Shown piece by piece: positions 1 through 45,043 of a stretch of DNA of 45,043 bases. Each line of letters begins with the position of its first letter. Position 1 is the first letter of the stretch. The position numbers and the translations under genes are program-made. Under the pieces are notes generated by a model. The model worked only from the letters and a program-made list of their open reading frames with translations. It ran no database searches and was not told the DNA's origin. The DNA lies in the IMG/VR virus record IMGVR_UViG_3300028549_000749, positions 1 through 45,043 of that record. One strand, 5' to 3'. The DNA comes from a virus.

Positions 1-165
1 ACCCGCCTTGCATCCAAACCAAGTCAAGGATTAGGAGCAGTAAAATGAGCGATACAGTAGCAAGCCTTGGAATAAAAGTCACAACAGAAGGAGTCACAAA
101 GGCTGATACCGAGCTAAAGAAATTAGCCACGGCCTCTGAAAAGTCTGAAAAAGCTATTGAAAAAA
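1..165. repeat. Terminal overlap, copy 1 (identical to 44879-45043)
   Basis: Read base by base: acccgccttgcatccaaacc...gctattgaaaaaa is identical at both window ends. Nt 1-48 are the 3' end of the frameshift-extended tail chaperone ORF. Confidence 0.95.
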
Positions 166-3100
166 TGATAGCTACCATTAAAAAACAGAACATGATCTTA
201 CAGTCAGGCAGGGCGGCTTATACAGATTTTGCCCTTGGAACGCTCGGAGCCTCAAAAGCTGAAAAACAACTTGCGCAAAACATAGAATCCAGCATTGCGG
301 CATACCGCAATAACATCAAAGCAACAAAAGACCTTGTTACAGAAGAGCGCAAGCGTCAATCATCAATAGATGGTTTGATTGCAAAAGCTAAAGATCAACT
401 TGCAGCAGTGTCTAAATCTAAAGACCAGATGATGGAATATAAGCTGGCATTATTGGGCGCCAGCGATGCCGAAAAGAAGGCGGTGTCACAAATAAATTCA
501 AGGATTGCCGCAATAAAAGCGTCAAAACAGGCAGAAGAGGAAGCTAATAGGATGGCTAAAGAATCCCAACTCGCAAAAGAAAGAATAATTTCTGCGGAAC
601 AAAAGAGACGGGATTCTATCAATTCAACCATAATGAAATTACGGGACGAAGCGGCCGCCGCCGGTAAGTCAGAAGTCCAGCTCCTTAAATATAAGCTGTC
701 ATTGCTCGGGGCCACGGAAGCGGAAAAGAAGGAAGCCCTGGCGTTACAGAAAACAGTCAACGAGTTCAAAAGGGCTAATTCTGCTGCGAACGTATATGGC
801 GATGCTATGTCAAGGATGAAAACGATAATCGGTAGCCTGGTTGGGGCTGTCGGGCTTGTCGAGATTATAAAAATTGCGGATAATTGGTCATTGGTAAGCA
901 GTCGGTTGAAACTCGTCACCAGTGGGACCGAGGAACTTGCACGAGCAGAAGGTAAGCTCTTTGAAATTGCTCAGAGTACCCGGCAAAGCTACGAACAGAC
1001 TGGAGATCTATATTCAAGGGTTGCAAGGTCAACCAAAGAATTAAACCTTTCTCAAGATCAATTGCTTGGGATTACCGACACAATAAACAAGTCCCTTATT
1101 ATTTCTGGATCGTCAACCCAGGCAGCAGAGGCGGCCATTATCCAATTGGGTCAGGGATTCGCATCCGGTGCGTTGAGGGGTCAGGAGTTAAACTCCGTGC
1201 TTGAACAGGCTCCAAGACTTGCAGAAGCCATAGCGCAAAGCATGGGCGTAGCTGTTGGTAGTCTTAAGGATATTGCCGCCACGGGTGGAATAACAAGTAA
1301 GGTCCTGGTAGATGCCCTATCAAAAACATCAGATTCGGGGCAAAAGATATCAGCAGAATTTAGCCAGATGAATACCACAGTAGGTCAAAGCGTTGTGCAA
1401 ATCAAAAACGCCTTTGCCAAGCTCGTAGGCGAATTTGATAATATGTCAGGGTCTACAAAACTTATAGCGTCTGGTTTTACGCTGATATCCGAACACATGC
1501 GAGACATTGCAGATGTTGCGGTTATTGCCGCCATAAGTTCAATCCCAATTATAATCATGAACATAAATAAGTCCGTCCAGGCCTTGACTGTAACCATGTC
1601 TTTGAACCCATGGGTTGCGGCTGCAACGGCAATACTTGCGGTGTCGTCATCGCTCGTGATGTTTGCAGATGAGGCAGATGCAGCTGCAAGCGGGAAAAGC
1701 CTTGGGGAACTTTCTTCTGATCTTCAAAATCTTGAAATATCCCTTGAAAACCTCCACCTGATCGATAAAGACCCCATCATGGGTGGCGCAGAGAATGACC
1801 GGCAAATAGCTGACACAGAAGCCGCCATAAGATCGCTCAAGAAAGAGATCCAAAGCTTGACCGGGGTTGCCACAGTGATAACCGACATAAACAGAGCGGC
1901 CCTTGACACAATCCATACTTTTGAAAAAAAGCAGGAGTTTGAGTTATTCAAAGGCATCGAAAAGAAATATGATAACGTCCTGAAAACAGAGGTTAAATAT
2001 CTTGAATCTTCTTTGGCTCAATATAAAGCATCTGAAAGCGCAAAGCCTGAAATAGTAAGGGCAATGGAAGAAGAGATAGCCGCAAAAAGAGAAGCCGCAA
2101 GAAACAAAGAAGCGGCCGCATATAAAAGATCTCACGCATCTGAAAATGCAGCTCGTAATAAGGCCATGCGGGAACAAGAGTCGGCAGAAAAGAAAGTAAT
2201 GGCAGAGAGAGAATCTGCCCTTAAAAAGATCCAGGCCATAGAAGATGCCAGACAAGGCCGGGTTGACAAAATCATAGAAAAGCTCAAGGAGGAGATTGCC
2301 ACTTACAAAGAAGGTGAAGAGGCAACGGTACTCTACCAGCTCACACAGGAAAAGGCAGACAGCACAGAAAAGGCATTGGCCGCATCCCTGGGCGCCACAA
2401 TAGACCAGCTCAAGGAAAAGACTAAGGCCCAGGATGAATACAATAAGGCCATGGAAAAGACAGCCCCTGATAAGATTGAACTTAACCGGGAAAAGGCCAT
2501 ACTTGCCGTAAATGAAGCCATGGCTAAGGGTGCAATCCAAAGCGCTGTTTATTCTGCAAGTATCAGCCAGGTGAACACATATTTTGACAAGATTGAAGAA
2601 ACAGCAGCAGATAAAAAACTCAACGACATTGGCAAAGAGCTGGACGAGCTGACATCGTTCGACGGATCTTCATTCGGAAACACAATCGCCGACGGCATAA
2701 ATAATGCCATGATATCGATGCAAAAGCTCGGAAAGACTTATGAAGATAATGAACAAATACAGCAAAAGATAATTGATCTTCAAAAAGAACTTGCGACAGG
2801 GGAGGGCAGTCCAGAACAAAGAAAGAAATCATTAGAGGACATTGATAAATACGAAAGCGCCATGATTAAAAACCAGATATCAAGCTATCGTGAGCTTTTC
2901 GGAACAACGTCCCAACTCTTTGAGGAGAACACCAAAGAGCGCAAGGCTATGCATAATCTGGAGATGGCTTTTGCAGCAGCAGAGATAGCTATTAATCTTC
3001 AAAAGGCAGTTGGAGAGGCAGTTACGGCCATAGCTCATCAAGCCTCAGGAGGAGACGTTTATTCAGCCTTTGCGAGAGTTGCAGCCATGGCTGTTACAAT

Positions 3101-6100
3101 GGGAGCTTTAATATCTCAAATAGGCGGGAGCATATCGGGAGGGAGCACAGACGCTGAAATAGTTAAGGCAACAAACGTTACCGGCTCGGTACTCGGGAAT
3201 AGCACGGCAGAAAGCGAATCCCTAAAGAACATTGAAGAGTTTTGGGAAGATATGCACCTGGAAGATTATGCCGAGCTTAAGGGTATCCATGATGAAATGA
3301 AAGACTTAAATTCCAATATCACTGGGTTGGTATCTACATTGTTCAGAGGTGGAGCAGGTGGATTTACCGCCGCCGATATGGGGATTAATACAGATTGGGT
3401 TATGGGCGATATCGAGGAGGGGTTCAGGGGTTTGCTTGAAAGTGCAACCACTGGATTCTTAACCTCTATTTTTGGATTTAAAGACGCGATATTCGGCGGG
3501 ATAGCTGATTGGGCAAACAACGCTCTTGGTAATATTGCCGGTAAAATATTCGGAGGAGGTTCTGAAACCTCTGTTCTGGCCCAAGGCATAACGACCACGG
3601 ATGCCGTAAAGATTGGGGAGCTTATCGGGGGGTCTTTGATTGATACTATCAAGTTCGCCGATATCAAGACCGAAACAGAAGGCGGCTGGTTTCACAGCGA
3701 TAAAACAGAACTTAGCACAAGGACCGAGGATCTTGGCGCAGAAGTTGACAACTTGTTTACTCAAATCTTTAAAAACCTTGGAAACACATTTGTCTCCATT
3801 GCCGAGATAGTTGGGCAGGATGTTCAGACTGTCCAAGACTTTGCCTTTTCAATCGGAAAAATCGACCTTAAAAACCTTGAGACTTCCGACGAGATTAACG
3901 AGGCCCTTAATGCTGCCCTGTCGTCAATAACAGATCAGGCTGCAACTGCGCTATTCGGTGAGCTGGTGGGGCAATACCAGACCGTTGGCGAAGGAATGCT
4001 TGAAACGGCTGTACGAGTAGCCTCTGAGAAAATTATAGTCATGGACACATTAGATAAACTTGGTAATGCCTTTAAAGATGCTGATATCCCATCAGAAGCT
4101 ATTGCATTCTCCCAAGGACTTTTAGACATTGCTGGTGGTCTTGAGACATTCTCGGAGTATGCAAGTAACTACTATGATTCATTTTTTTCTGATGAAGAAA
4201 AACAAGTAGATATCGGTGAACTACTCACAGAGTCACTTAAAGATTTTGAGATTGATTTACCAAATACAAGAGAGATGTACAGGGATGTTGTAGATGGTCT
4301 TGACTTAACAACAGAGTCAGGTAAGAAAGCATATATTTCTATGCTTAAAATGTCGGAGTCTGCTGATGAGTATTATGCCTATCTTGAGGATGCCAACGAG
4401 GATACCAGAGAGGCCATGGAGAAGTTGACTAATACTATTACTGATGGTGTTAATAATATCCTTATAGCTTCAAAGAGAATAACAGAACAAGAACTTTTCA
4501 AAACAACATTTGCTAATAAGTATGGTGTATCTCCTGGTGAGCAGCATAGCACAGAAGCTGTGTCTTTTATTTCTACAGCATCAACTGATACAATACAGGC
4601 ACTCGCAGATTCCTTTGGTGTCACAGTATCCGGGATGCTGCAAGACATCGCAGATGAGGCTAATATGGTTGCCTCAGAGATATCTATAGCAAAAGAGAAA
4701 GCAGAAACTATTGTAAATGGCATTAATAATATACTCATGGCCTCTAGTAAACTTACAAATGAAGACCTATTCAATACCAATTTTAAAGACAAATATGATG
4801 TAACGCCCAGCGCAAGCCACAGCGCCGAGGCGGTTGACTTTATATCCACAGCGTCGCCAGAAACCATCCAGGCTCTTGCCGATGGGTTTGGTGTTACAGT
4901 TTCAGAGATGTTACAAGATATAGCTGATGAAGCTACTATGGTTGCTAAAGTTGCAGAGAGTAAAAAATCCTTAGAAATTAGAATTATGGAGCTATCTGAT
5001 GATGCAGCAGGTGCGCTTATCGAGACACGTAAGCTTGAAATTGATAGTTTAGATGCGAGTCTTAAACCACTACAAGAAATAATTTGGAATCTTGAGGATG
5101 AGTCTAAGATAGTAGAAAAAGCTAAAGAGCTGCTAAACAATAAACTTTCACTTGAAAACCAACTATATACCTTACTTGGTGATGAGGTATCCCTAAATAA
5201 AGTAATAGCTCAACAGAGAGATATTACTTTAGCTGCTATGGACATTTCACTAAGAGATACACAGAAGAAAATATGGCTTATTGAGGAAGAAAATACAGCA
5301 AGGCAAAAAGCATCTGAACTTCTAAACAATAAATTAAACCTTGATAGCCAGCTTTACACTTTATTAGGTGATGAGATATCCCTAAATAAAGTAATAGCTC
5401 AACAGAGATCTCTTGAACTTTTGGCTATGGATCAAACATTAAGGGCTACACAAGAAAGAGTTTGGGCGCTTGAAGATGAAAAGGTAGCAACAGATGTGGC
5501 TAAGGATGCGCTTGAAAAATCTATTGAATCTCAAATATCAATGTACCAATCACTTGCCGATGCAGCCGAAGAATACCTAAACAAATCAAAAGATCTACTT
5601 GATCGCTCTTTTGATGCAGAGCAGACCAATTTAACCGCTAACCATGAGGCTATGGTAAACAAACTAACAGTCAGCATGGAAGAAGCAACAAAAACAACCG
5701 AAACGTTAGAATCAGCTTTTGAATCTATTAAGTCAGCTCGGGAATCCATGGAAACAGATTCAGCGGCATTGACGTTTGAGGCTGTAACAATTCAATTGAA
5801 AAATGCAATATCAGCAGCAAAAAGCGGAGACTTTTCACAAACAGAAACTGTTGTCCCTAATCTTGGAATATTGACTTCACAAACACAGTCTGATTATGCC
5901 AGCTCTGTTGATTATAAAAGAGATTCTATCAAAACTTATCTGGCAATTTCTCAACTTGAAGATTTGACCGGTAGCCAATTAACAGAGCAGCAACAAATAG
6001 TAAAGAATCTTGAAGACCAGATAACAATTGAAAATAAACATCATGAGATCATACTTGAAAACATGCAAGCTCAGTATGATTTGGTTGTTGGCGTAGACAA

Positions 6101-6623
6101 GTCGGTTATATCTTTTGAGCAGGCCGTTACAGAGTATCAAAAAGCTCAATATGCATCAGACGGCGCAAATACTTTGCTGCAAACGCAAACTGTTCAGCTC
6201 GAAGCACAGCTAAACAGCCTCTTAAATATAAATAATGGAGTGCTGTCAGTTGCCAATGCTGTCAACAATCTATCATCGGCACAGTGGGCGTTTAATTCCT
6301 CTTTATCAGGCATGTTATTGCCTGTTTCTGGATCTGTATCTCAAGACAGTGGATTGGGCTTTGCAGACGGAGGTATTCTATCCGGGCCTTCATCTGGATA
6401 TAGCGTAAACGCAACCTTCCACGGACCCGAGGCAATCGTACCACTTGACCAATTAAATACATCAAGTTTAATATCTGAAATTAGAAAGCTGCGTGAAGAG
6501 GTATCATCTTTGCGGGCAGAATCTGCCAGGGCAAACTTTCAGATAGCAAAAAACACACAAGAGACAACGAAGACTTTAAGAAAGTTTGATTATGATGGAA
6601 TGCCGGAGCAAAGGACAGCATGA
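45..6623 (+). CDS. Tail tape measure protein (2192 aa)
   Basis: Largest ORF, immediately downstream of the chaperone pair with an ATGA overlap across the junction. RBS aggag. Long Ala/Glu/Lys-rich coiled-coil segments, central hydrophobic segments, internal repeats, and a C-terminal GFADGGILSGPSSGY..FHGPEAIVPL motif typical of tape measures. Confidence 0.9.
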   Translation: MSDTVASLGIKVTTEGVTKADTELKKLATASEKSEKAIEKMIATIKKQNMILQSGRAAYTDFALGTLGASKAEKQLAQNIESSIAAYRNNIKATKDLVTEERKRQSSIDGLIAKAKDQLAAVSKSKDQMMEYKLALLGASDAEKKAVSQINSRIAAIKASKQAEEEANRMAKESQLAKERIISAEQKRRDSINSTIMKLRDEAAAAGKSEVQLLKYKLSLLGATEAEKKEALALQKTVNEFKRANSAANVYGDAMSRMKTIIGSLVGAVGLVEIIKIADNWSLVSSRLKLVTSGTEELARAEGKLFEIAQSTRQSYEQTGDLYSRVARSTKELNLSQDQLLGITDTINKSLIISGSSTQAAEAAIIQLGQGFASGALRGQELNSVLEQAPRLAEAIAQSMGVAVGSLKDIAATGGITSKVLVDALSKTSDSGQKISAEFSQMNTTVGQSVVQIKNAFAKLVGEFDNMSGSTKLIASGFTLISEHMRDIADVAVIAAISSIPIIIMNINKSVQALTVTMSLNPWVAAATAILAVSSSLVMFADEADAAASGKSLGELSSDLQNLEISLENLHLIDKDPIMGGAENDRQIADTEAAIRSLKKEIQSLTGVATVITDINRAALDTIHTFEKKQEFELFKGIEKKYDNVLKTEVKYLESSLAQYKASESAKPEIVRAMEEEIAAKREAARNKEAAAYKRSHASENAARNKAMREQESAEKKVMAERESALKKIQAIEDARQGRVDKIIEKLKEEIATYKEGEEATVLYQLTQEKADSTEKALAASLGATIDQLKEKTKAQDEYNKAMEKTAPDKIELNREKAILAVNEAMAKGAIQSAVYSASISQVNTYFDKIEETAADKKLNDIGKELDELTSFDGSSFGNTIADGINNAMISMQKLGKTYEDNEQIQQKIIDLQKELATGEGSPEQRKKSLEDIDKYESAMIKNQISSYRELFGTTSQLFEENTKERKAMHNLEMAFAAAEIAINLQKAVGEAVTAIAHQASGGDVYSAFARVAAMAVTMGALISQIGGSISGGSTDAEIVKATNVTGSVLGNSTAESESLKNIEEFWEDMHLEDYAELKGIHDEMKDLNSNITGLVSTLFRGGAGGFTAADMGINTDWVMGDIEEGFRGLLESATTGFLTSIFGFKDAIFGGIADWANNALGNIAGKIFGGGSETSVLAQGITTTDAVKIGELIGGSLIDTIKFADIKTETEGGWFHSDKTELSTRTEDLGAEVDNLFTQIFKNLGNTFVSIAEIVGQDVQTVQDFAFSIGKIDLKNLETSDEINEALNAALSSITDQAATALFGELVGQYQTVGEGMLETAVRVASEKIIVMDTLDKLGNAFKDADIPSEAIAFSQGLLDIAGGLETFSEYASNYYDSFFSDEEKQVDIGELLTESLKDFEIDLPNTREMYRDVVDGLDLTTESGKKAYISMLKMSESADEYYAYLEDANEDTREAMEKLTNTITDGVNNILIASKRITEQELFKTTFANKYGVSPGEQHSTEAVSFISTASTDTIQALADSFGVTVSGMLQDIADEANMVASEISIAKEKAETIVNGINNILMASSKLTNEDLFNTNFKDKYDVTPSASHSAEAVDFISTASPETIQALADGFGVTVSEMLQDIADEATMVAKVAESKKSLEIRIMELSDDAAGALIETRKLEIDSLDASLKPLQEIIWNLEDESKIVEKAKELLNNKLSLENQLYTLLGDEVSLNKVIAQQRDITLAAMDISLRDTQKKIWLIEEENTARQKASELLNNKLNLDSQLYTLLGDEISLNKVIAQQRSLELLAMDQTLRATQERVWALEDEKVATDVAKDALEKSIESQISMYQSLADAAEEYLNKSKDLLDRSFDAEQTNLTANHEAMVNKLTVSMEEATKTTETLESAFESIKSARESMETDSAALTFEAVTIQLKNAISAAKSGDFSQTETVVPNLGILTSQTQSDYASSVDYKRDSIKTYLAISQLEDLTGSQLTEQQQIVKNLEDQITIENKHHEIILENMQAQYDLVVGVDKSVISFEQAVTEYQKAQYASDGANTLLQTQTVQLEAQLNSLLNINNGVLSVANAVNNLSSAQWAFNSSLSGMLLPVSGSVSQDSGLGFADGGILSGPSSGYSVNATFHGPEAIVPLDQLNTSSLISEIRKLREEVSSLRAESARANFQIAKNTQETTKTLRKFDYDGMPEQRTA

Positions 6624-7531
6624 AACTAATAAAACCAGTCAAAATAACAGATAGCATACTTTCCGTTTCCAACGTTGCAGAAAACGATTATGCAATCTGG
6701 GGTAGCGGAACTACATATGCCGTGGGCCAAAAGGTAATAGTTGTGGCAACCCATAAGCAATATGAAGCCACAAAATCAAGCACAAACTTGTATCCACCAG
6801 ATAATATTGGAGGTGTAGAGCCAGCATGGATAGAGATAGGGACAACAAATAAATATAAAATGTTTAACGATTCGTATTATGATCAAACCACAAATTTAGG
6901 TAGCATATCGATAATTCTGGATATTGGTAGATGTGATGCTATTGGGATTATGAATGTTGAATCGTCAAGCATCAATGTAGAAATTATTATATCTGGAAAT
7001 ACAGAATATGATATTGACATACCCATGAATTTATCGTTTGCAAGCAACTGGTATGAATTTTTCTATTCTCCTATTGAAAGAAAAACCGATATTGTTTTGA
7101 CAGACATTCCGGTTTGCGGAGGAAAGCAAATAATAGTAACTATTTCTGGGAGCGTAGACCAGGTGGTTAAGTGCGGTTTATGTATCCCTGGAACTGTCGT
7201 AAAAATAGGCGATTCTTTATGGGGTGTTGAGTTTGGAACAGAAAATTTTTCAAAAAAAGAACAGGATGACTTTGGAGGCTATTCCCTCATTCCAAGGAAT
7301 TATTCAAAAACCTTAACCGATAGCATTGTCCTTCCAAATGAAAGAACAGGTTACATTCAAAAACTCATACAGCCATACTACACAACTCCAGCGTTGTGGG
7401 TGGCTGATGAACAATTTGAATCAACAGTTATTTATGGGTTTTACAGAGATTTTTCCGTAGTTTTAGACCATTTTTCAGGTAGCGGAATAGACGGGGCGCA
7501 ATGCTCCATAACAATAGAAGGATTAGTATAA
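6620..7531 (+). CDS. Tail tip / distal tail protein candidate (303 aa)
   Basis: ATGA overlap with the tape-measure stop. The call is based on position only. Confidence 0.5.
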   Translation: MKLIKPVKITDSILSVSNVAENDYAIWGSGTTYAVGQKVIVVATHKQYEATKSSTNLYPPDNIGGVEPAWIEIGTTNKYKMFNDSYYDQTTNLGSISIILDIGRCDAIGIMNVESSSINVEIIISGNTEYDIDIPMNLSFASNWYEFFYSPIERKTDIVLTDIPVCGGKQIIVTISGSVDQVVKCGLCIPGTVVKIGDSLWGVEFGTENFSKKEQDDFGGYSLIPRNYSKTLTDSIVLPNERTGYIQKLIQPYYTTPALWVADEQFESTVIYGFYRDFSVVLDHFSGSGIDGAQCSITIEGLV

Positions 7532-7532
7532 A

Positions 7533-8741
7533 ATGGCAATATCACCCTTACCACCAGCACCACAACACACAGATCCACCCCCCATCTTTGAATCAAAAGG
7601 TGATTTATGGGTGGCAGCTCTTGAAACTTGGACAAACCAGGCAAACGCGTTGCAGGTTGATGTTAATAACAAACAGACGGCAGCAGCAGCAAACCAGGTG
7701 GCCGCCGAACTTGCAGAAACAAATGCAGAAACTGCCAGGGATTTATCGATAGCTAACGCCACTGGCACAACAACAGATGGATCATCAAAACTTTGGGCTA
7801 CAAAAACAGGATCAGCAGTTGCAGCTTCGGAATTTTCTGCTAAAGAGTACGCCATTGGAACTGTTGCAACCGTAGGGAGTGCAAAGACTTGGGCTACAAA
7901 AACAGGCTCTGTTGTTGTAACTGGGGAGTATTCAGCAAAAGAGCATGCAGTCGGGACTGTAGCGACAACAGGTAGCGCAAAGGATTGGGCATCAAAAGCT
8001 GAAAATAGCGAAGTAACAACCGGAGAGTATTCAGCAAAACACTACTCTTTAAAAACCGCTATTTTGAAGTCAAGCGTTGAAGCTACAGCCGCAGCCGTCC
8101 AAAGTGCGGCTGGATTGCCAAGTTTAACAGGGAATGCTTTTAAATCTTTGTGCGTAAACAGTGCGGCGACGGGTGTAGAATGGAGTGGGGGAGTTACGCC
8201 TGGATGCGAATACATAACAGCATCAAAAACTTTTGTTGTCCCATCAGAGGTAAAACTTTTATTTGTTCAAGTTTGGGGGCCTGGCGGGGGAGGTGGTGCG
8301 GCACAGTCCTATTATCCCCCTGGGGGAGGTGGGGGATATTCTGAAAAATATATTGCAGTAACACCGGGGCAATCAATAGTCGCAACCGTTGGTGTTGGTG
8401 GATTGGGTGCGACATACGTTTATCCAAACACAACTAATGGTGTAACAGGAACAACTACTTCTTTCGGATCTTATCTTTCAGCCACAGGAGGAGAAGGAGG
8501 GGGTATATCCGGGGAGACAGCTCTTGGGCGTGGTGGTACAGGTGTTGGGGGATCTATGAATGTTAAAGGAGGCCAGGGCCTGAATGGTGTAATAGGTGGA
8601 ACTTTTATGATGCATGCCAATATTGAGACCTCCTACGCAATTCCAGCAAAAAGCAGCATGGGCTTAGGTGGTTGGCCTGGGGCAAGTGCAAACGGGAGAC
8701 AAGGTGGCGATGGAATGATCATAGTGAGGTGGTATAAATAA
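7533..8741 (+). CDS. Tail fibre protein with SAK-type fibre repeats and a C-terminal glycine-rich domain
   Basis: Repeats (SAKEYAIGTVATVGSAKTWATKTG / SAKEHAVGTVATTGSAKDWASK / YSAKHYSLK) resemble phage tail-fibre repeats. The C-terminus carries GPGGGGG..PPGGGGGYSEKY..VGVGGLG, as in glycine-rich fibre tip domains. Confidence 0.75.
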   Translation: MAISPLPPAPQHTDPPPIFESKGDLWVAALETWTNQANALQVDVNNKQTAAAANQVAAELAETNAETARDLSIANATGTTTDGSSKLWATKTGSAVAASEFSAKEYAIGTVATVGSAKTWATKTGSVVVTGEYSAKEHAVGTVATTGSAKDWASKAENSEVTTGEYSAKHYSLKTAILKSSVEATAAAVQSAAGLPSLTGNAFKSLCVNSAATGVEWSGGVTPGCEYITASKTFVVPSEVKLLFVQVWGPGGGGGAAQSYYPPGGGGGYSEKYIAVTPGQSIVATVGVGGLGATYVYPNTTNGVTGTTTSFGSYLSATGGEGGGISGETALGRGGTGVGGSMNVKGGQGLNGVIGGTFMMHANIETSYAIPAKSSMGLGGWPGASANGRQGGDGMIIVRWYK

Positions 8742-10263: not shown

Positions 10264-11049
10264 TTAGGCTGTTAACTCGTTATAAAGCTCGTTGAAAGTA
10301 TCTTCATAATAATGGGGCTGAACTTCAAGTCTATTCTGGGGACTCACATCTTTTTGACCGAACTTCAATCCCTTTGTTGTCAATGCTTTAAATGTCTTCG
10401 CCCCTTTGCTTGAAGGTCTTTCTTTTTCCTCAAGATATCCTGCCACCACCATAAGGGCATTAAATACCCTAACATTTATTGGGAGATTGTTCTTTTTTAA
10501 AAGCTCAGTTGCTGAGAATACCACCCTTGCCTTTTCCACATATTCCGGGAGAAAGGAGCTGCTGATATTATTTGCCTTGTAAACCATTGAGACAATATCA
10601 ATCTTTGACGCATCCGAATAATTTAACATCCTGGCGATTGTCTCCGCTCCCATCAATTGGCATTGAACGGTTTCCGGGATTTGTGCCGGGGCTTTTACTC
10701 TCCGAGATACCCTTTCACATTCAATGAAATACTTCCTTGCAGCTCTTCCTTTGTCGTTTTTCTCAACCATGGAAAGCTCTTTTGCCATGTCAAGAGAAAG
10801 GGCATATTCTACACGGGCTTTAGAATTTGATTCCACAAAATTATGGAATTGAATAAAATCAATATCTTGTGTAAACCCATACTGCTCGATCCTGCCTTTT
10901 ATCCATGTTGAATAATCTTGACCAACTTCAAGGAAAGAATGAAGTTCCCGAGCGTCAACTGAATTGACAACCTCTCCCCCGATTGCAGCTTCTGAAACTC
11001 TTACCAGTTGATTTATTGCAGAACTTGTGCTAAAGTTTCCTACTGTCAT
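10264..11049 (-). CDS. ant: Antirepressor, AntA/AntB N-terminal domain (copy 1)
   Basis: VVNSVDARELHSFLEVGQDYSTWIKGRIEQYGFTQDIDF...MAKELSMVEKNDKGRAARKYFIECE is the AntA/AntB-type N-terminal signature. Paralogous to 25262-26044. Confidence 0.75.
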   Translation of the reverse strand: MTVGNFSTSSAINQLVRVSEAAIGGEVVNSVDARELHSFLEVGQDYSTWIKGRIEQYGFTQDIDFIQFHNFVESNSKARVEYALSLDMAKELSMVEKNDKGRAARKYFIECERVSRRVKAPAQIPETVQCQLMGAETIARMLNYSDASKIDIVSMVYKANNISSSFLPEYVEKARVVFSATELLKKNNLPINVRVFNALMVVAGYLEEKERPSSKGAKTFKALTTKGLKFGQKDVSPQNRLEVQPHYYEDTFNELYNELTA

Positions 11050-12426: not shown

Positions 12427-12527
12427 TTAGTTGAGACCCCCAGGGTATCGGCTATAACGATAGCCTTTTCATCTTCGGTTACAGTCCTGATCTTCCATCC
12501 GTTCTCTTTGAAGACTTGAAAGGCCAT
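12423..12527 (-). CDS. Possible small protein (34 aa)
   Basis: Internal ATG with the RBS ggaggaatgatagaATG just after the Rha stop. ATGA overlap with the downstream gene. Confidence 0.35.
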   Translation of the reverse strand: MAFQVFKENGWKIRTVTEDEKAIVIADTLGVSTK

Positions 12528-12531
12528 TCTA

Positions 12532-13245
12532 TCATTCCTCCAATGCCGTAATGATATCAAGGCAATTCTGACGATGCCGCCTCGAATATAGTTTTTTAAG
12601 ATTGTCTTTTCGCTCCTGGTAATCCATACCAAGTTCAATCAAGGCAGTATTTACTTTTTGCATGTCGGCAATGGCTGTGATAATTGGCTCTGGCATATGG
12701 TCCCTGAAACGCTCGTTTATATCGATATCGTGAATCTCACACCATTTCTTTTTTGTAACGCCCAGGACTATTTTATAAATCAATGTATGTTCATTTGAAA
12801 AATGATGTGGCATTGTTTCTTTTCCCAGTTCATTCCTGATATTCAAAAGAGCATCGGTCATAGGCTTGCATCCAAACCTTGCTATTTCATCTGATCTTTT
12901 ACGAATAGCCTCGTTTTTTATGAACGATTCCATTTTGTTGAAAGCATCAAGGAAAGACTCCCTCCATTGTGCCGCTTTATCTCCGGTGAATTTCATTATC
13001 AAGCAAGAGAAACCATCTCGTGTCATAAGGTAATATTTGTTCTTTTTACCGGAACCATCCTTATATTCACTCAACGCAAAATTGCGTTCAGTGAATTGCT
13101 GAGATTGACCCGATTTTTCTATAGCCCTAATGACGTCGGAATGTCTTTTCCCATAACTCAAAGCAACTTCTATAGAGGAAACTCTTACTCCGCCATTAAT
13201 CACAAACTCAATTCCATCAATTACCTTGGGTAAATTCTTCATCAT
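12532..13245 (-). CDS. rha: Rha-family phage regulatory protein (copy 1)
   Basis: VRVSSIEVALSYGKRHSDVIRAIE...YYLMTRDGFSCLIMKFTGDKAAQWRESFLDAFNKME matches the Phage_pRha pattern. The start was chosen at the ATG with the RBS gaggagaaag. By eye roughly 60% identical to 18453-19163. Confidence 0.8.
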   Translation of the reverse strand: MMKNLPKVIDGIEFVINGGVRVSSIEVALSYGKRHSDVIRAIEKSGQSQQFTERNFALSEYKDGSGKKNKYYLMTRDGFSCLIMKFTGDKAAQWRESFLDAFNKMESFIKNEAIRKRSDEIARFGCKPMTDALLNIRNELGKETMPHHFSNEHTLIYKIVLGVTKKKWCEIHDIDINERFRDHMPEPIITAIADMQKVNTALIELGMDYQERKDNLKKLYSRRHRQNCLDIITALEE

Positions 13246-13375
13246 CTTTCTCCTCTTTAACATCGTCTTTGATGTGCTGTAAAATTATCTCGGTCATTGT
13301 AAGGCCCTTTTCAACTGCATAATGTTTAAACTTTTTATGCAACTCCTCGTCAATTCTCATTACGAACTTTTTCAT
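13217..13375 (-). CDS. Ribbon-helix-helix protein (52 aa) upstream of Rha copy 1
   Basis: Not in the track. MKKFVMRIDEELHKKFKHYAVEKGLTMTEIILQHIKDD... RBS aaggaggttattaaATG. Confidence 0.6.
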   Translation of the reverse strand: MKKFVMRIDEELHKKFKHYAVEKGLTMTEIILQHIKDDVKEEKDDEEFTQGN

Positions 13376-13404
13376 TTAATAACCTCCTTTTTTGTGTATG
13401 GCTC

Positions 13405-13433
13405 AATATATATCTACACGTTAACAAAGTCAA
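13405..13433 (-). promoter_or_regulatory. Promoter of the leftward RHH-Rha...Ant operon
   Basis: Minus strand TTGACT-N17-TATATT, about 30 nt upstream of the RHH start. Confidence 0.6.
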
Positions 13434-13450
13434 GAACTATTTCATAAAAC

Positions 13451-13479
13451 TTGACACCATGAATAAAATATGAGAAATA
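13451..13479 (+). promoter_or_regulatory. Divergent promoter of the + strand cassette
   Basis: TTGACA-N17-GAAATA with TG at the extended -10 position (tgaGAAATA). Confidence 0.45.
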
Positions 13480-13485
13480 TAAAGC

Positions 13486-13604
13486 GTGGGCGGAAATGGC
13501 CATTTCCGAGACTGGTTCCCGCAAGCCAGCCGTCCCACACTCCATACATTGCGGAAAAGAAAGACCCCATTACGGCTTGCGGAGCTGTAGATGGGGTTTT
13601 TTAT
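13486..13604 (+). ncRNA. Structured 5' leader / candidate riboswitch-like attenuator (or stand-alone sRNA)
   Basis: P1 gtggg(13486-90)/cccac(13534-38). P2 cggaaat-ggcc-atttccg (13491-13508). P3 ctggtt-cccgca-agccag (13512-29). A terminator hairpin plus T-run follows. ccgcaagcc (13519-27) is perfectly complementary to ggcttgcgg (13574-82). Confidence 0.5.
13564..13604 (+). terminator. Intrinsic terminator inside the leader, 50 nt upstream of the first cassette ORF
   Basis: accccattac / gta(g)atggggt is a 10-bp stem with one bulge, followed by ttttttatt. Confidence 0.65.
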
Positions 13605-13655
13605 TCCCGGATCAATCAGCAATAACGCTGACAGCACATATATGGAGACTCAAAA

Positions 13656-14216
13656 ATGGAAAATGGTTTCGGAACTACTGACATTCTGACTGGTAGAGGG
13701 CTTGGTTTGGCTGGATTTGGTGGATATAATTACGGCGGGCAGTATGCGGATGTAAGCTCTAATGCCGTGCGAATCAACAGAAATGAGGGCGTAACCCGTG
13801 ATGCTGCATCTTGCGTTACTGGAGTTCTTGGAGCCAGCCTTGATCGTATCTCCGCACAGAACTTTGAGGGCAGATTCAACGCTGCCATTACGTCCTTGAG
13901 AGACGGGCAGTTTCAGGGAGAACTTAGGCTCAGTGACAGCTTGGCAGCCATTAGGCTTGATGCTGCTCATCAGGCGGCGGCGGCGGCTCAGTGTTGTTGT
14001 GAACTTAAAATTGAAATGTTGAAATGCTGCTGCGAAACTCAGAAACTCGTATCCGCTGAGGGGACCGCAACCAGGGAACTTATCAACCAGAACACAATCC
14101 GGGCAGCCGTTGACCAGAACAACATCAATGCCACTGTAGGTGCAATCAATGCCAATGCCAATGCTAATGCAAACGCAATTGTCCAGGCCATTAACAGCCA
14201 GTGCAGCAAGTCTTAA
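13656..14216 (+). CDS. Orphan protein with two Cys triplets (186 aa)
   Basis: RBS ggagactcaaaaATG. Gly/aromatic-rich N-terminus, Ala-rich helix, QCCCELKIEMLKCCCETQ, and an Asn/Ala-rich C-terminus (INANANANANA). No family recognised. Confidence 0.7.
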   Translation: MENGFGTTDILTGRGLGLAGFGGYNYGGQYADVSSNAVRINRNEGVTRDAASCVTGVLGASLDRISAQNFEGRFNAAITSLRDGQFQGELRLSDSLAAIRLDAAHQAAAAAQCCCELKIEMLKCCCETQKLVSAEGTATRELINQNTIRAAVDQNNINATVGAINANANANANAIVQAINSQCSKS

Positions 14217-14226
14217 TCGTTAAACA

Positions 14227-14248
14227 GGCGGGGCCAATGCGCCCCGCC
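14227..14248 (+). other. GC-rich intercistronic hairpin
   Basis: ggcgggg...ccccgcc directly after the stop of the 186-aa ORF, with no U-tract. Confidence 0.4.
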
Positions 14249-14261
14249 ATAAAGGAATATC

Positions 14262-14528
14262 ATGACAGAACCTAAAGATTTGCTTGAAAAAGAATCAACT
14301 CCATATGACATTGGCGGTCCTAATGCAAAAAAGGGAATGGTTTTAACAGACGCTGATCTTGCAACAAAAGAGGCCGTGCAGTGGAATGGTTTTGGTTTTG
14401 TTTGCAAGCTGTGCGGGATCCCAGCGGTTTTGCATTTTATGAAGTATTGCGGCAATTGTGGCGCTGCCGTTAATGTTCAATCAAATAAAGTTAACCGTTA
14501 TCTCGAAAAAAGAGAGGAGCGATATTGA
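14262..14528 (+). CDS. Zn-ribbon protein (88 aa)
   Basis: CKLCGIPAVLHFMKYCGNCG (CxxC-x11-CxxC). RBS aaaggaatatcATG. Confidence 0.65.
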   Translation: MTEPKDLLEKESTPYDIGGPNAKKGMVLTDADLATKEAVQWNGFGFVCKLCGIPAVLHFMKYCGNCGAAVNVQSNKVNRYLEKREERY

Positions 14529-14734
14529 TGGAAGAAAAATCGGATCTTGAAATGGCAATGGCTGCACTGACCGATGAAGTTGGTGGAGTTAAGGAATATC
14601 TTGAGATTGCAGAATATTGCAAGGACCAGGAGCTTAAAGCCATCGCCATGAACATTGCAGCAGACGAAAAGAAACATGCTAATATCCTGATGCAGTTTGT
14701 GGCAAAGCATGTGCAGGCCATGCTTTCAAAATAA
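14528..14734 (+). CDS. Two-helix ferritin-like protein, encapsulated-ferritin (EncFtn)-like
   Basis: TGATG overlap with the upstream stop. In the track numbering DEVGGVKEY...QELKAIAMNIAADEKKHANILMQFV gives E18, Y25, E48, H51. This has the same spacing as the EncFtn ferroxidase residues E32/Y39/E62/H65 (recalled from the R. rubrum protein). Confidence 0.55.
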   Translation: MEEKSDLEMAMAALTDEVGGVKEYLEIAEYCKDQELKAIAMNIAADEKKHANILMQFVAKHVQAMLSK

Positions 14735-14741
14735 AAATAAA

Positions 14742-14767
14742 CCATCCCGTAATTTTGTGCGGGATGG
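14742..14767. terminator. Terminator hairpin between convergent genes
   Basis: ccatcccg-N10-cgggatgg. On the minus strand it is followed by tttatttttatttt. It closes both the long leftward early operon and the + cassette. Confidence 0.65.
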
Positions 14768-14783
14768 CTTATTAAAAAATCAA

Positions 14784-15185
14784 CTATTCATGACACGTTC
14801 TCTCTGATCTGATGATTTCGTCCGCTGTTTTTCTGCATATCTTGCATATGACATGTTCCCAAGGATGTAAATGTTTTTTGATGTGGCGAATAAAAATATC
14901 GTCTCTTGACATTATCTCAATCTCTGATATGGCCTTAAGTACTGTATCAACGGTTACCCTGTCGTAATCTTTAATATCTTCTGGCAAACTATCGTAAGGA
15001 TACATATCTGGGTGACACAGATCACAAAACTTAAAACGTTCTGGGGTCTTATAAAAACCTAATGATTTTATCTTTGGGCAGTCAACTGGTGCATGAAACC
15101 CGGCTGCCTTCTTGGTTTCCCACCATGCGTCATGGACCTTTGCTGCAATCTCTTCTTTACGTTCTGTAAGTTCTTTAATTTCCAC
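14784..15185 (-). CDS. RyR-domain protein
   Basis: IAAKVHDAWWETKKAAGFHAP...CHPDMYPYDSLPEDIKDYDRVTVDTVL resembles the bacterial/phage RyR domain (HE.W...k...GW.yG...hP.lvPy..L.e..K..dR). GTG start with the RBS ggaggcagaactGTG. Confidence 0.5.
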   Translation of the reverse strand: MEIKELTERKEEIAAKVHDAWWETKKAAGFHAPVDCPKIKSLGFYKTPERFKFCDLCHPDMYPYDSLPEDIKDYDRVTVDTVLKAISEIEIMSRDDIFIRHIKKHLHPWEHVICKICRKTADEIIRSERTCHE

Positions 15186-15220
15186 AGTTCTGCCTCCATA
15201 TTAATGTCATAAACCCAAGT

Positions 15221-15361
15221 TTAACGTAATGATTTATCATCGTCAACATCCTCATTGTCATCATCTTCATTCTTGCGCTGATCCCTCGCCGGGTAAAATC
15301 CCAGGACTGCAAAAAACTCCTGACATGGGTAGTATAGCTTTTCGTCTTCTTTTTTCATCAT
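15221..15361 (-). CDS. Small acidic protein (46 aa)
   Basis: Trimmed to the ATG in ATGA overlap with the upstream stop. Asp/Glu-rich C-terminus. Confidence 0.45.
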   Translation of the reverse strand: MMKKEDEKLYYPCQEFFAVLGFYPARDQRKNEDDDNEDVDDDKSLR

Positions 15362-15777
15362 GACTCCATTATGCTTTTCCATTTGTTTGCAGCCACAGAC
15401 CCTGCCCAAAATGACGGAGCAGGAGCCTTTCCGGATCTCTCAAAGTATTCCACAATATCGTTGAGAGTTTCGGTTATCCTGGGGTTATATTTAAACTCTG
15501 ATCGCTCGATCAAATCAAGGCAAAATGACACGAGCGTAATAATGTGCTTGGGCTTTCCTTCCCATCCGGTTTCTTTGCCGAATTTTCCGACTAAAGACTC
15601 TATTATATCAAGCTCCCTTATCGTTGCCCTGGGAATTGCCTCAAGCTCTTTTGTTGCCGTTTTTGTTAGCCTGTTGTAAAGGTTTTTTAGTCTCCCCGGC
15701 TTGACTTGATCCTTGGTAAACTCCGGGATGCTGATTATCATTGCAAGCTCTGTCATCTTTTTATTTGTTTTATTCAT
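15358..15777 (-). CDS. Hypothetical protein (139 aa)
   Basis: RBS aagaggcatcATG. No family recognised. Confidence 0.65.
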   Translation of the reverse strand: MNKTNKKMTELAMIISIPEFTKDQVKPGRLKNLYNRLTKTATKELEAIPRATIRELDIIESLVGKFGKETGWEGKPKHIITLVSFCLDLIERSEFKYNPRITETLNDIVEYFERSGKAPAPSFWAGSVAANKWKSIMES

Positions 15778-15788
15778 GATGCCTCTTT

Positions 15789-16775
15789 TTATGCGAACAA
15801 ATCAAGCTGGCTTGGCCCATCTAAAGTTTTGATGTTTTTGATTGCCTGCCTGAAATAGCTTTCCTTTAACTCAATCCCAAGGCCCATCCTGCCAAGTTCA
15901 ACCGCCGAATAAACCTCGCTGCCGATGCCCATAAACGGGGTTAAGACTGTTTCCCCTGGATTGCTCCATAGTTGGATAGCCCGTCTTGACACATCCAGAG
16001 AAAGCGGGCAGATATGCTTCTCATCTTCGCTTGATCTTGCCGACATGTACTGGAGAGTGTTTGTCATTTTTATGTCCATCCATACCGGACTGGCATACCT
16101 TCTCCATCGCTCATGCGGTAATATCTTCTTTTTAGGGGGATTAATCTCTCTTGCGATGGCTCCCCATTGGCTGTCATTGTCCATATCTCCCACATCATCG
16201 GCAGGCTCATTCTCCCCGTAAAACTCTGTCAATCCTTCTGGGTGGGAAACAACTTCATCATTCCCCCCTGGCTTGCGAAACCCAAGGAGATAATCAGGGA
16301 TGCCTGCCCTGGACATGGTAGAGTCTTTGCAAAGCTGTTTGTGCATCAATCCAAGGGCCTTTGTTCTTACCGCTTCCAGGAGGGGATCTTTCCATATGCA
16401 ATGTTCAGAATGGAAAATAAAACCGTGCTTTTGAAACAGCCTAATCAGATCCCCTCTGAAATCTTTAAGGCCGATATACCCGTCCCGCTCCTTCATGGCC
16501 GGGATATTCATGCAGTGACATGCTGATATCCTGCCTGGTTTGGTGGTTCGGAATATTTCAGCCACAATATATCCCAGGTGATCATAAAATTCCTCGGGGC
16601 TTTTGCAGTTTCCGAGATCCCGATCCGAGTTTGAATATGTGTATAACGAATTAAAAGGCACAGAATATACAGACAAATCAATCGAATTGTCTGGGAAGTT
16701 CTTCATGACATCCGTTGAATCGCCATTGTACAGTGCATACCTGTCAGTAACTACATGGTCAATAACTCCATTCAT
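15789..16775 (-). CDS. DNA methyltransferase (N6_N4_Mtase-type, beta class)
   Basis: Motif IV-like DLSVYSVPF precedes motif I TPFMGIGSEVYSAVELGR. The start was set at the ATG with the RBS aaggagaataattATG just after the helicase stop. Confidence 0.75.
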   Translation of the reverse strand: MNGVIDHVVTDRYALYNGDSTDVMKNFPDNSIDLSVYSVPFNSLYTYSNSDRDLGNCKSPEEFYDHLGYIVAEIFRTTKPGRISACHCMNIPAMKERDGYIGLKDFRGDLIRLFQKHGFIFHSEHCIWKDPLLEAVRTKALGLMHKQLCKDSTMSRAGIPDYLLGFRKPGGNDEVVSHPEGLTEFYGENEPADDVGDMDNDSQWGAIAREINPPKKKILPHERWRRYASPVWMDIKMTNTLQYMSARSSEDEKHICPLSLDVSRRAIQLWSNPGETVLTPFMGIGSEVYSAVELGRMGLGIELKESYFRQAIKNIKTLDGPSQLDLFA

Positions 16776-18452: not shown

Positions 18453-19163
18453 TTATTCTTCTATCTTATTGATCTCTTCAAGACATGCCTGTAAATGCCG
18501 CTTGGTGTAAAGTTTGTCAAGCTTGGCTTTGCGGTCTTCATATTCCATTCCAAGCTCAATCAAATCAGTGTTCACTCTTTGCATATCTGCGATGGCTTTT
18601 ATCATTGGGGCGGGCATATGATCCCTGAATCTTTCTTTGCTGTCAATGCCATGAACTTCGCACCATTGCTTTTTTGTGGCTCCGAGAACAATTTTATAAA
18701 TCAAAGTGTGTTCATTGGAATAATGGAAAGGCTTTGTGTTTTTTCCTGCTTCCGTTCTTATATTAAGCAAGGCTTGGGCCATCGGTCTGCATTCAAGTTT
18801 TGCTTCATCATCTGATTTTTTGCGCTCATGCTCGGAAATTATGAACGCTTCCATTTTGTTGAATGCTTCAATAAAATCAACTTTCCATACGGCAGCCTTA
18901 GCCCCAGTAAACCCCATTGCAAGAAAAGACATTCCATCTCTTGTTAAAAGGTAATGTGGCCTTCTTTGATTGTTCTTGTCTGTGTATTCGCCCAGCGTAA
19001 AATTGCGCTCGGCAAAACCAATTGGACAATCAAGATTTCTTATAGATCTCAAAACTTCTTTGTGATCTTTTTCAAATTTGTTTGCTATTTGGATTGATGA
19101 CACACGGATATTTCCGTTAACTGAGAACTCAATTCCATCAATAACACTTGGCACGTTTTTCAT
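18453..19163 (-). CDS. rha: Rha-family phage regulatory protein (copy 2)
   Basis: IRVSSIQIANKFEKDHKEVLRSIRNL...HYLLTRDGMSFLAMGFTGAKAAVWKVDFIEAFNKME. ATGA overlap with the RHH gene. Confidence 0.8.
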   Translation of the reverse strand: MKNVPSVIDGIEFSVNGNIRVSSIQIANKFEKDHKEVLRSIRNLDCPIGFAERNFTLGEYTDKNNQRRPHYLLTRDGMSFLAMGFTGAKAAVWKVDFIEAFNKMEAFIISEHERKKSDDEAKLECRPMAQALLNIRTEAGKNTKPFHYSNEHTLIYKIVLGATKKQWCEVHGIDSKERFRDHMPAPMIKAIADMQRVNTDLIELGMEYEDRKAKLDKLYTKRHLQACLEEINKIEE

Positions 19164-20933: not shown

Positions 20934-21671
20934 TTAAACTTCAATCTTTAAGCAATCGTCAATTACGTGACTCTGGCCGTGTAGTTCTGCGAAAATCATA
21001 ACCTTTGATTTAACATCCTGGTAAATATCCTTGTAAAACAGCTTTTTGTTCATGCCGACTCTAAGGCCCCTATCGATTATCTGTTCTGCGGAACTTACTG
21101 TCATGAGTTGTTGGGTTGACATCACCTCCCGCAAGTTTTTATATTTTCCCTCAACTATAAATAAAAGTCCGTTCATCATCTTGGTTATAGACGTGTAATA
21201 CCTGTGGGCATTATTGCTGCCCTGTGATTCTGCATATTCAACAAATCTTTGCATTTCATCTGTTGTTTGTTTTCTTACGAGTTTTCCGGCATCCCTGGTT
21301 ATTTGGTATGACGGGTTGTGTTTGTGTTCTCTAAGTGCAGATAAGCTTTTTTTAATATGAACAAAATCATTAGCAAGTCTTTCCTTGAAATCCAAAACAA
21401 GATCAGTGTTTCTAAAAATAGACCCAAGGAAAATAGTTTGCTGTTCATTTAGGAGGTATTCCTCAACTGGCCTTCCTGCTGTTTTTGAAGGAACCTTATG
21501 AATAATAAACCGTTCCAGGAACGACTTATTATTCTCCAGCCTGAAAAACCTTTCCTTGTATTTATTTATCAATCTCAAAACTTCGTTGTGTTCTCTGTTG
21601 AATCCTTGAGATATTAGAAAGGTTCCTGCTCTTGGTTCATCATCGTGAAGATTTACAATTTCATTTACCAT
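20934..21671 (-). CDS. Rha-like regulatory protein (copy 3, divergent C-terminus)
   Basis: TFLISQGFNREHNEVLRLINKY...GRPVEEYLLNEQQTIFLGSIFRNTDLVLDFKERLANDF fits the Phage_pRha pattern. Confidence 0.55.
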   Translation of the reverse strand: MVNEIVNLHDDEPRAGTFLISQGFNREHNEVLRLINKYKERFFRLENNKSFLERFIIHKVPSKTAGRPVEEYLLNEQQTIFLGSIFRNTDLVLDFKERLANDFVHIKKSLSALREHKHNPSYQITRDAGKLVRKQTTDEMQRFVEYAESQGSNNAHRYYTSITKMMNGLLFIVEGKYKNLREVMSTQQLMTVSSAEQIIDRGLRVGMNKKLFYKDIYQDVKSKVMIFAELHGQSHVIDDCLKIEV

Positions 21672-25130: not shown

Positions 25131-25265
25131 TTGAAAAAATTAGAGTGTAAACGTTGTGGTCATAAATGGATTCCAAGGGTTGAAGGTAAACCAGTTGCTT
25201 GCCCTGCTTGCAATAGCCGAAAATGGAATGAAGAAAAAACATATAAAAAGGAGCTTGAAAAATGA
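25131..25265 (+). CDS. Zn-ribbon protein (44 aa)
   Basis: Not in the track. TTG start with the RBS aaggagattggt. (M)KKLECKRCGHKWIPRVEGKPVACPACNSRKW.. ATGA overlap with ant copy 2. Confidence 0.5.
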   Translation: MKKLECKRCGHKWIPRVEGKPVACPACNSRKWNEEKTYKKELEK

Positions 25266-44926: not shown

Positions 44927-45043
44927 GCGATACAGTAGCAAGCCTTGGAATAAAAGTCACAACAGAAGGAGTCACAAAGGCTGATACCGAGCTAAAGAAA
45001 TTAGCCACGGCCTCTGAAAAGTCTGAAAAAGCTATTGAAAAAA
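44879..45043. repeat. Terminal overlap, copy 2 (identical to 1-165)
   Basis: Exact 165-nt match to the window start. Confidence 0.95.
44923..45043 (+). CDS. Tape measure protein 5' end (duplicate of 45-165 caused by the circular overlap; partial)
   Basis: Identical sequence to 45-165. Confidence 0.9.
   Translation, partial: MSDTVASLGIKVTTEGVTKADTELKKLATASEKSEKAIEK

Follow-up and report, generated by a model that had tools for sequence, protein, structure and literature searches.

A conserved, self-contained phage accessory operon with a covarying leader RNA, a triple-cysteine protein, and an EncFtn-like mini-ferritin

Why would a phage keep a small rightward-facing set of genes, none of them obviously lytic, between two leftward operons? 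The question is raised by positions 13451 to 14767 of the viral record IMGVR_UViG_3300028549_000749 in IMG/VR, which we analyzed over its full 45,043 nucleotides (the window). An initial annotation, made from the letters alone, had described this segment as an autonomous cassette with its own promoter, a folded leader of about 120 nucleotides, and terminators, encoding a triple-cysteine protein, a zinc-ribbon protein, and a mini-ferritin. We find that this segment is an accessory operon of the phage, both conserved and self-contained. What it does is less certain; the reading we favor, to which we give a little under an even chance, is that it may be a conditionally expressed operon for handling iron or another metal under the control of a new type of riboregulator.

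The layout and the recurrence of the cassette carry the first part of this answer. Three long plus-strand open reading frames, here genes 1 (13656-14216), 2 (14262-14528), and 3 (14528-14734), are the only ones between the leftward operons, which bears out the description of the cassette as the sole rightward unit there. At least six further, distinct phage loci from metagenomes contain all three genes (loci carry L numbers below), so the grouping proposed from one sequence holds elsewhere. In L005/L006/L007, L139, L140, and L261, gene 1 is followed by a small Cys-rich gene of 75 to 136 amino acids, then by gene 2 (74 to 93% identical) and gene 3 (52 to 57%); in L012 the order is 1-3-2. L139 and L261 are likewise plus-strand islands between leftward genes with a bidirectional terminator at the end, as in the window. 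The initial annotation had not recognized the combination as a described system, and no match to it was found in Pfam, PHROGs, NCBIfam, PADLOC, Rfam, or the literature searched. The PADLOC defense-system search gave no match, blastn of 12500-15800 against GenBank phages gave none either, and a literature search for the motifs and for phage EncFtn returned nothing relevant.

The leader RNA (plus strand, 13484-13604) folds as a three-way junction followed by a bulged 12-pair terminator hairpin and a tract of six U residues, with a z score of -3.0 for the leader as a whole. In the junction (13486-13538), helix P1 (13486-13490 with 13534-13538) closes two hairpins separated by a single A, namely, P2 (13491-13508), with the invariant loop GGCC at 13498-13501, and P3 (13510-13531), with the invariant loop CCCGCA at 13518-13523; the only unpaired junction bases are A13509, G13532, and U13533. 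The linker that follows (13540-13555) holds an anti-Shine-Dalgarno strand, CUCCAUACAU (13540-13549), and the first invariant UUGCGGA (13549-13555), which is complementary to the P3 loop. The intrinsic terminator (13559-13604) pairs 13565-13576 with 13584-13596, leaving G13590 bulged, around a second UUGCGGA that forms the loop (13577-13583), and it ends in the U6 tract at 13597-13602. Its hairpin is strong (-25.6 kcal/mol, z score of -7.1). A simple terminator scan did not detect it; the stem has a bulge, and its segment adjoining the U tract encloses a long loop. Between the terminator and the ribosome-binding site stands a small hairpin (13616-13631, UCAGC-AAUAAC-GCUGA), and in every minimum-energy fold of the read-through RNA the strand 13540-13549 is predicted to pair with the ribosome-binding region of gene 1, AUAUAUGGAG (13638-13647), sequestering its Shine-Dalgarno GGAG (13644-13647).

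This architecture is conserved. Alignment of upstream regions revealed the same RNA before gene 1 in L005, L006, L007, L138, L139, and L140, and six sequences went into a covariance model, R1. It gives seven distinct loci scores of 109 to 132 bits, and one of them, L261 (128 bits), is an independent copy that played no part in building the model. The leader lies immediately upstream of gene 1 and in the same orientation in all seven, and all seven share one minimum-energy shape (z scores of -3.0 to -4.6). In the model-fitted alignment, 96.8% of cells form standard pairs, compared with 37 to 47% when the partner strand is slid, and 19 of 32 pairs have changed on both sides, a result matched by none of 500 shuffles; these counts come from only seven leader sequences in an alignment fitted to the model and lean toward structure for that reason, but the margin is still wide. 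The pairs changed on both sides are spread over P1 (2), P2 (6), P3 (6), and the terminator stem (5), the terminator loop being invariant. For the anti-Shine-Dalgarno helix, 93% of cells are paired against 29 to 50% when slid, with 2 compensatory pairs. The small hairpin appears in the folds of all leader loci with changed stem sequences and was left out of the formal pair counts, the MAFFT alignment being out of register there. Against this background of changing stems, four elements stay invariant: GGCC in the P2 loop, CCCGCA in the P3 loop, and the UGCGGA copies in the linker and in the terminator loop, both of which are complementary to the P3 loop. Covariation, folding energies, and the seven loci thus bear out the claim of a folded leader of about 120 nucleotides that ends in an intrinsic terminator.

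Two other identities for the leader were tried and set aside. ARAGORN found nothing tRNA-like in it, and a leader peptide (an open reading frame at 13470, with synonymous-looking differences between loci) fails because a 2-nucleotide indel between loci breaks the frame and its ATG precedes the point where transcription is expected to begin. Searches for further copies by pattern yielded no true ones: an exact 14-mer across the P3 loop gave more than 119 chance matches in IMG/VR, a combined leader pattern gave 5 unrelated hairpins there, and a three-part pattern gave 55 stretches in JGI metagenome contigs and 53 in bacterial reference genomes of 185,579 species, none of which matched R1.

How might such an RNA act? 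A mutually exclusive pairing, that is, a switching mechanism, is suggested by the sequence: CCGCAAGCC could pair with GGCUUGCGG in a candidate antiterminator, a 9-base-pair helix joining P3 to the terminator apex. As in a riboswitch, a covarying structured domain is followed by an expression platform, here both a terminator and Shine-Dalgarno sequestration. The named classes that invite comparison are the terminating riboswitches and attenuators with Shine-Dalgarno sequestration, such as the three-way-junction purine riboswitch and the metal-sensing czcD/NiCo and yybP-ykoY families. The leader shares with them a conserved junction close to the promoter, its stems covarying and its loops invariant, with a terminator and an anti-Shine-Dalgarno strand after it. 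The leader differs from these classes in having no Rfam match, in a junction with nearly no unpaired bases, and in lacking a strand common to the sensor helix and the terminator, in place of which an invariant loop is complementary to the two UGCGGA copies. With Rfam 15, the leader had no match in the window at E values up to 10 or in five further loci at E values up to 5, and none at gathering scores. Regulation by a ligand is only one reading of the leader. That it is a separable control module follows from L143, which keeps the ribosome-binding site and the small hairpin but has consensus promoters in place of the junction and terminator.

The signals at the two ends of the operon and within it recur as well. 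The promoter-like site (plus strand, 13451-13479) consists of a -35 element TTGACA (13451-13456), a 17-nucleotide spacer, TG at 13471-13472, and a weak -10 element GAAATA (13474-13479), which together predict a transcript start at about 13485-13487. TTGAC lies 35 nucleotides (once 34) before P1 in all seven related loci, with divergent spacer sequences, and TGn precedes the -10 element in six of the seven; the proposed TTGACA-N17-extended -10 promoter is thus supported by its sequence and by the fixed position of TTGAC, although a promoter consensus scan did not list it, owing to the weak -10 element. On the opposite strand, a promoter-like TTGACT-17-TATATT (13405-13433) stands ahead of the leftward operon that begins with an Arc-like gene, and since the two promoters are back to back, the ribbon-helix-helix protein encoded at 13217-13375 might control both that operon and the cassette. 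After gene 1, a GC hairpin without a U tract (plus strand, 14227-14248; -19.6 kcal/mol, z score of -4.0) stands where the initial annotation had placed one, and it has a covarying counterpart at the same place in L138. The closing hairpin (14742-14767) folds on both strands (-17.4 kcal/mol and a z score of -5.0 on the plus strand, -17.6 kcal/mol and -5.9 on the minus strand). The better U tract is on the minus strand, and we therefore read it as a bidirectional terminator that ends both the cassette and the leftward operon running to 14784, a layout found likewise in L139, L260, L261, and L262. The proposed closing terminator is thus present and serves both sides. Taken together, the conserved signals agree with the notion of an autonomous unit with its own predicted promoter, leader, and terminators. 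The gene next to the closing terminator (14784-15185, minus strand) encodes a RyR-domain protein (PF02026, 29 bits), and a close relative, L260, has the same neighbor (495-887).

Of the three proteins, that of gene 3 is the most readily assigned. It has 68 amino acids and an encapsulated ferritin (EncFtn)-type two-helix ferritin-like fold, and it scores 32.8 bits against the EncFtn-like family PF22277 (cutoff of 27; E value of 6e-8). A profile search of the PDB found 3k6c (2.6e-11), the EncFtn Rru_A0973 (1.5e-5), and several encapsulated ferritins (1e-5 to 1e-3). Residues E17, Y24, E47, and H50 are invariant in six sequences and have spacing identical to that of Glu32, Tyr39, Glu62, and His65, the ferroxidase-center residues of the Rhodospirillum rubrum EncFtn (PMC5012862). 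The family score, the PDB matches, and this full ligand set uphold the assignment of gene 3 as an EncFtn-like mini-ferritin. The NCBIfam models for encapsulin-associated ferritins match only below cutoff (28 versus 125 bits), and Rubrerythrin PF02915 is reached marginally (23.5 bits, cutoff of 22.8). Gene 3 thus shares the two-helix fold and the Glu/Tyr/Glu/His ligand spacing with EncFtn (PF22277; R. rubrum Rru_A0973, PDB 5da5), and its closest solved relative is 3k6c, NE0167 of Nitrosomonas europaea. Unlike EncFtn, it has only 68 amino acids, lacks the N-terminal extension and the localization tail, and is phage encoded and coupled to genes for a Cys4 protein and a CCC coiled-coil protein; its neighbors are the zinc-ribbon gene and the terminator, with no encapsulin shell gene adjacent. 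EncFtn-like genes also stand in other IMG/VR contigs with no gene 1 relative nearby (L254 4950-5165, L255 352-564, and L256 4953-5165).

The ATG of gene 3 at 14528 overlaps the stop codon of gene 2 by one base (TGATG), and its Shine-Dalgarno sequence, GAGAGGAG (14511-14518), lies within gene 2. The gene 2 product, of 88 amino acids, has a conserved N-terminal segment followed by CxxC-x11-CxxC; the spacing had been given correctly, and the four cysteines (C48, C51, C63, and C66) are invariant in 10 sequences. Its family is harder to place. All Pfam zinc-ribbon matches are below cutoff (best, 15 bits versus 27), the profile has no significant match in the PDB (ZZ finger, 0.019; rubrerythrin Cys4 domain, E value of 0.2), and the AlphaFold2 model, with a predicted local distance difference test score (pLDDT) of 44, is too poor for a fold search. 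Neither gene 2 nor gene 3 has a homologue among 50,697 GenBank phage records by tblastn, and word-index searches with the two returned near-identical proteins only.

Gene 1 encodes 186 amino acids, of which residues 1-32 are glycine rich and predicted to be disordered and 33-183 are predicted to form a long helix. The initial annotation had read in it the motif QCCCE-x7-KCCCE; the two CCC motifs are there (113-115 and 124-126), with a spacing of six residues rather than seven (residues 112-127). AlphaFold2, run with 36 sequences, gave a single helix from 33 to 183 behind the disordered N terminus (pLDDT of 82; predicted template modeling score of 0.31), predicted to be about 22 nm long. This single-helix model is the usual picture of a coiled-coil subunit, and a heuristic heptad score assigns, in 145 of 200 CCC motifs, one Cys to core position a or d and another to flanking position e or g. 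Foldseek of the model against BFVD found nothing, and the sequence has no match in Pfam or NCBIfam.

The gene 1 family is nonetheless sizable. Its 36 close relatives are all metagenomic, a profile search of 1.84 billion representatives found 242 phage-associated clusters, nearly all of 160 to 250 amino acids, and reference genomes of 185,579 species yielded no relative. CCC, mostly as CCC[DE], is present in 162 of 175 family sequences, and 134 of the 175 end in a tail rich either in Cys (CGCGCGGG..PCP, ACGCC) or in His (GHHGH). This interchange of Cys and His favors metal ligation over disulfides alone, and the claim that gene 1 is thiolate rich extends to a family rich in cysteine and imidazole. 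In PHROGs, 10 of the 36 members match 9288 and 6 of 36 match 16490, a weak link to two groups that are both labeled "unknown function." Distant relatives exist in two cultured phages, ORF29 of Yersinia phage PY100 and gp08 of Edwardsiella phage eiAU (labeled "hypothetical"), where they head a four-gene plus-strand island after the tail genes (PY100, L258, 10164-11913; eiAU, L259, 10475-12329) and are followed by a His-rich protein of 121 to 123 amino acids. These two proteins and the two PHROGs groups have in common with gene 1 the glycine-rich N terminus and a CCCETQK...ATREL motif. The differences are equally clear: BLAST aligns only about 30 residues, the His-rich partner replaces the zinc-ribbon/EncFtn pair, and there is no leader match. 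The His-rich eiAU gp09 was considered as a relative of gene 3 and rejected (hhalign probability of 0.1%).

Across loci, no member of the module is as constant as gene 1, and what accompanies it varies. The extra gene between genes 1 and 2 is very Cys rich, matches no family, and contains two repeats whose ends read TCG[GP]C (L005 6692-7060, L006 5277-5687, L139 2940-3176, L140 1560-1787, L143 1574-1822, and L261 1789-2025); the window and L138 have the GC hairpin at that place. In distant modules the mini-ferritin is replaced by a full-length Ferritin (PF00210): gene 1 is accompanied in L253 by a gene 2 relative and a 173-amino-acid Ferritin (7464-7985) and in L001 by a Ferritin (7107-7628). 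The L253 site may be degenerate, since the expected ExxH histidine appears as lysine (WESKERW). In L003, L011, and L252, gene 1 follows a gene of 160 amino acids and adjoins endolysin genes, with no ferritin.

The rest of the genome gives the setting. The ends of the window are identical over 165 bases (1-165 and 44879-45043), which indicates a complete phage genome, circular or with terminal redundancy, of 44,878 bp. Its rightward late genes encode DnaB, terminase, tail proteins, and a lysozyme ending at 10219, and the terminase shares 64% identity with its counterparts in siphophages of Stenotrophomonas, Acinetobacter, and Pseudomonas. A single open reading frame of 2,192 amino acids (45-6623, plus strand) opens the tail region. 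The cassette lies 3 kb past the end of the late operon, among early-type leftward genes: on one side an operon from 13375 to 10264 (minus strand), with an Arc-like ribbon-helix-helix gene first, then Rha, and AntA last, and on the other an operon from about 23.5 kb (the coordinate of the initial annotation) to 14784 (minus strand), encoding ERF, YqaJ, two Rha proteins, an SNF2 helicase, a methylase, and the RyR-domain protein. Five antirepressor-type genes in one 45-kb genome, two AntA and three Rha (one with KilAC), are an unusual number of paralogues (10264-11049, 12532-13263, 18453-19163, and 20934-21671 on the minus strand and 25262-26044 on the plus strand).

Does the cassette qualify as a moron, as the initial annotation had suggested? 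It resembles morons such as bor and lom of lambda in its small size, in having a promoter and a terminator to itself, in its place between functional modules, and in being made of genes not obviously lytic. It differs from them in that its composition is not atypical and no cassette-free relative was found. The cassette was said to be richer in GC than its flanks, and at 0.465 versus 0.429 for the genome it is richer, but this is only the 83rd percentile of windows of the same size and is not anomalous, so the compositional argument for an acquired moron fails. The GC content is high only in the leader (0.545) and gene 1 (0.499); genes 2 and 3 are average. No cassette-free relative that would show an indel was found, and a search with the flanking Rha gene gave distant loci only. 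No integrase was present among the window open reading frames scanned against Pfam, and with a complete circle, prophage expression is therefore not implied.

The favored reading, a conditionally expressed metal- or iron-handling operon, can be put as a sequence of steps. A sigma-70-type promoter with a consensus -35 element would drive the leader of about 120 nucleotides, whose default state would be doubly off, by termination and by Shine-Dalgarno sequestration. A trigger acting on the junction and the invariant loops (GGCC, CCCGCA, and the two UGCGGA copies) would open both locks. Gene 1 would then assemble as a parallel coiled coil whose cysteines form layers within the core or next to it, probably a metal-binding scaffold to which most relatives add a Cys- or His-rich tail. 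Gene 3 would dimerize to build a di-iron ferroxidase site of the EncFtn type, and gene 2, as a four-Cys knuckle protein translationally coupled to gene 3, would be its likely partner. Jointly, and only under particular conditions, the products may deal with a thiophilic metal such as iron, or with the redox stress that it causes, in the infected cell. A more specific version, which we regard as doubtful, holds that the leader is a new riboswitch class, so far seen only in phage contigs, sensing a metal ion or a redox or thiol signal and inducing a shell-free EncFtn ferroxidase together with a cysteine-layered coiled-coil metal-binding family.

Several observations weigh against the favored reading. 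The metal or redox function is drawn from sequence motifs only, and the gene 1 protein of the window itself lacks a Cys- or His-rich tail, ending in SQCSKS. Gene 2 has no significant family match in Pfam or among PDB profiles, and its structure model failed. Gene 3 ends in ...VQAMLSK, without a localization tail of the Gly-Ser-Leu-Lys type, and EncFtn alone stores little iron (PMC5012862). In the RNA, only three of the seven loci (window, L005, and L007) have the candidate antiterminator as the lowest-energy fold of the truncated leader, the invariant part of this helix amounts to only 5 base pairs and so leaves no room for covariation, and three unpaired junction bases are unusual for a small-molecule pocket; the small, model-fitted leader alignment belongs here as well. 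Finally, for some gene 1 relatives the neighbors are lysis or tail genes, and no ferritin is close by (L003, L252, PY100, and eiAU).

The last of these points leads to an alternative in which the leader is a factor-dependent antitermination site rather than a metabolite sensor, recognized by a phage protein or acting as RNA on RNA polymerase in the manner of HK022 put, so that polymerase gets past the terminator at a defined stage of infection, gene 1 is a metal- or disulfide-stabilized structural or lysis-associated fiber, and genes 2 and 3 are helpers in assembly or metal insertion. A constitutive-looking promoter, a short RNA, and a strong terminator before phage genes do resemble lambda PR'-6S RNA-tR' and HK022 put, to which the leader has no known sequence similarity. 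The HK022 put RNA consists of two stem-loops one base apart, and P2 and P3 are likewise separated by one A. A protein might bind the invariant, repeated UGCGGA, the predicted 22-nm helix would suit a fiber, and gene 1 relatives stand at the tail/lysis junction in L003, L252, L253, L005, and eiAU. In the leader, however, the hairpins are closed by a third helix, there is a Shine-Dalgarno-sequestering helix, which would stay shut after antitermination, and what follows is a three-gene operon rather than a long early or late one. Moreover, the neighborhood of the cassette yielded no gene resembling Q or N, the window cassette sits among early-type leftward genes 3 kb past the late operon, and for a fiber there is neither a BFVD structural match nor a functional label on the PHROGs relatives. 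We consider this explanation, the main rival, unlikely. It is more improbable still that the leader is mainly a stand-alone phage small RNA of about 118 nucleotides with a promoter and terminator of its own, in which a single-stranded linker bearing CUCC pairs with ribosome-binding sites and so represses gene 1 and possibly further mRNAs, genes 1 to 3 being expressed from occasional read-through only. The strength of the terminator (z score of -7.1) and the conserved, single-stranded linker and loops would suit such an RNA, and covariation between the linker and the gene 1 ribosome-binding region fits pairing in trans as well as in cis. But all copies of the RNA that were found (7 of 7) immediately precede gene 1 in the same orientation, no separate promoter is conserved between the terminator and gene 1, and the exchange of the leader for consensus promoters in L143 suggests that it gates this operon.

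A different division of the operon would make genes 2 and 3 a split and reversed rubrerythrin, with a Cys4 iron center and di-iron helices, that detoxifies peroxide in an oxygen-sensitive host, and gene 1 unrelated cargo. Translational coupling of the two genes, the passing of the Rubrerythrin Pfam cutoff by gene 3 (23.5 versus 22.8 bits), and the closeness of the gene 2 spacing CxxC-x11-CxxC to the rubrerythrin C-terminal domain (the PDB match with an E value of 0.2) all fit this idea, but that match is not significant, gene 3 is better described as EncFtn-like, and the terminase points to relatives that infect aerobic Proteobacteria. Gene 1 is also no add-on, being the most constant module member, and we rate this explanation as quite improbable. 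That the segment is a chance collection of open reading frames and hairpins and no biological unit has a negligible probability: nothing speaks for it beyond the weak -10 element and the empty terminator scan, and it is refuted by the co-occurrence of homologues of all three proteins in conserved order, by the covariation of the leader RNA, and by the independent locus that R1 detects at 128 bits.

If the leader is indeed a sensor, it would add a class of regulatory RNA that so far has been found in phage-type contigs only and has no Rfam family, and it would combine two locks, termination and sequestration of the ribosome-binding site, in one compact and well-covarying fold. The CCC coiled-coil family, with 242 clusters, lacks a Pfam model, and its members in the cultured phages PY100 and eiAU offer tractable systems in which to study it. 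That tailed phages encode an EncFtn fold without a targeting signal bears on the relation between encapsulin cargo and phage genes and on whether phages manage iron during infection.

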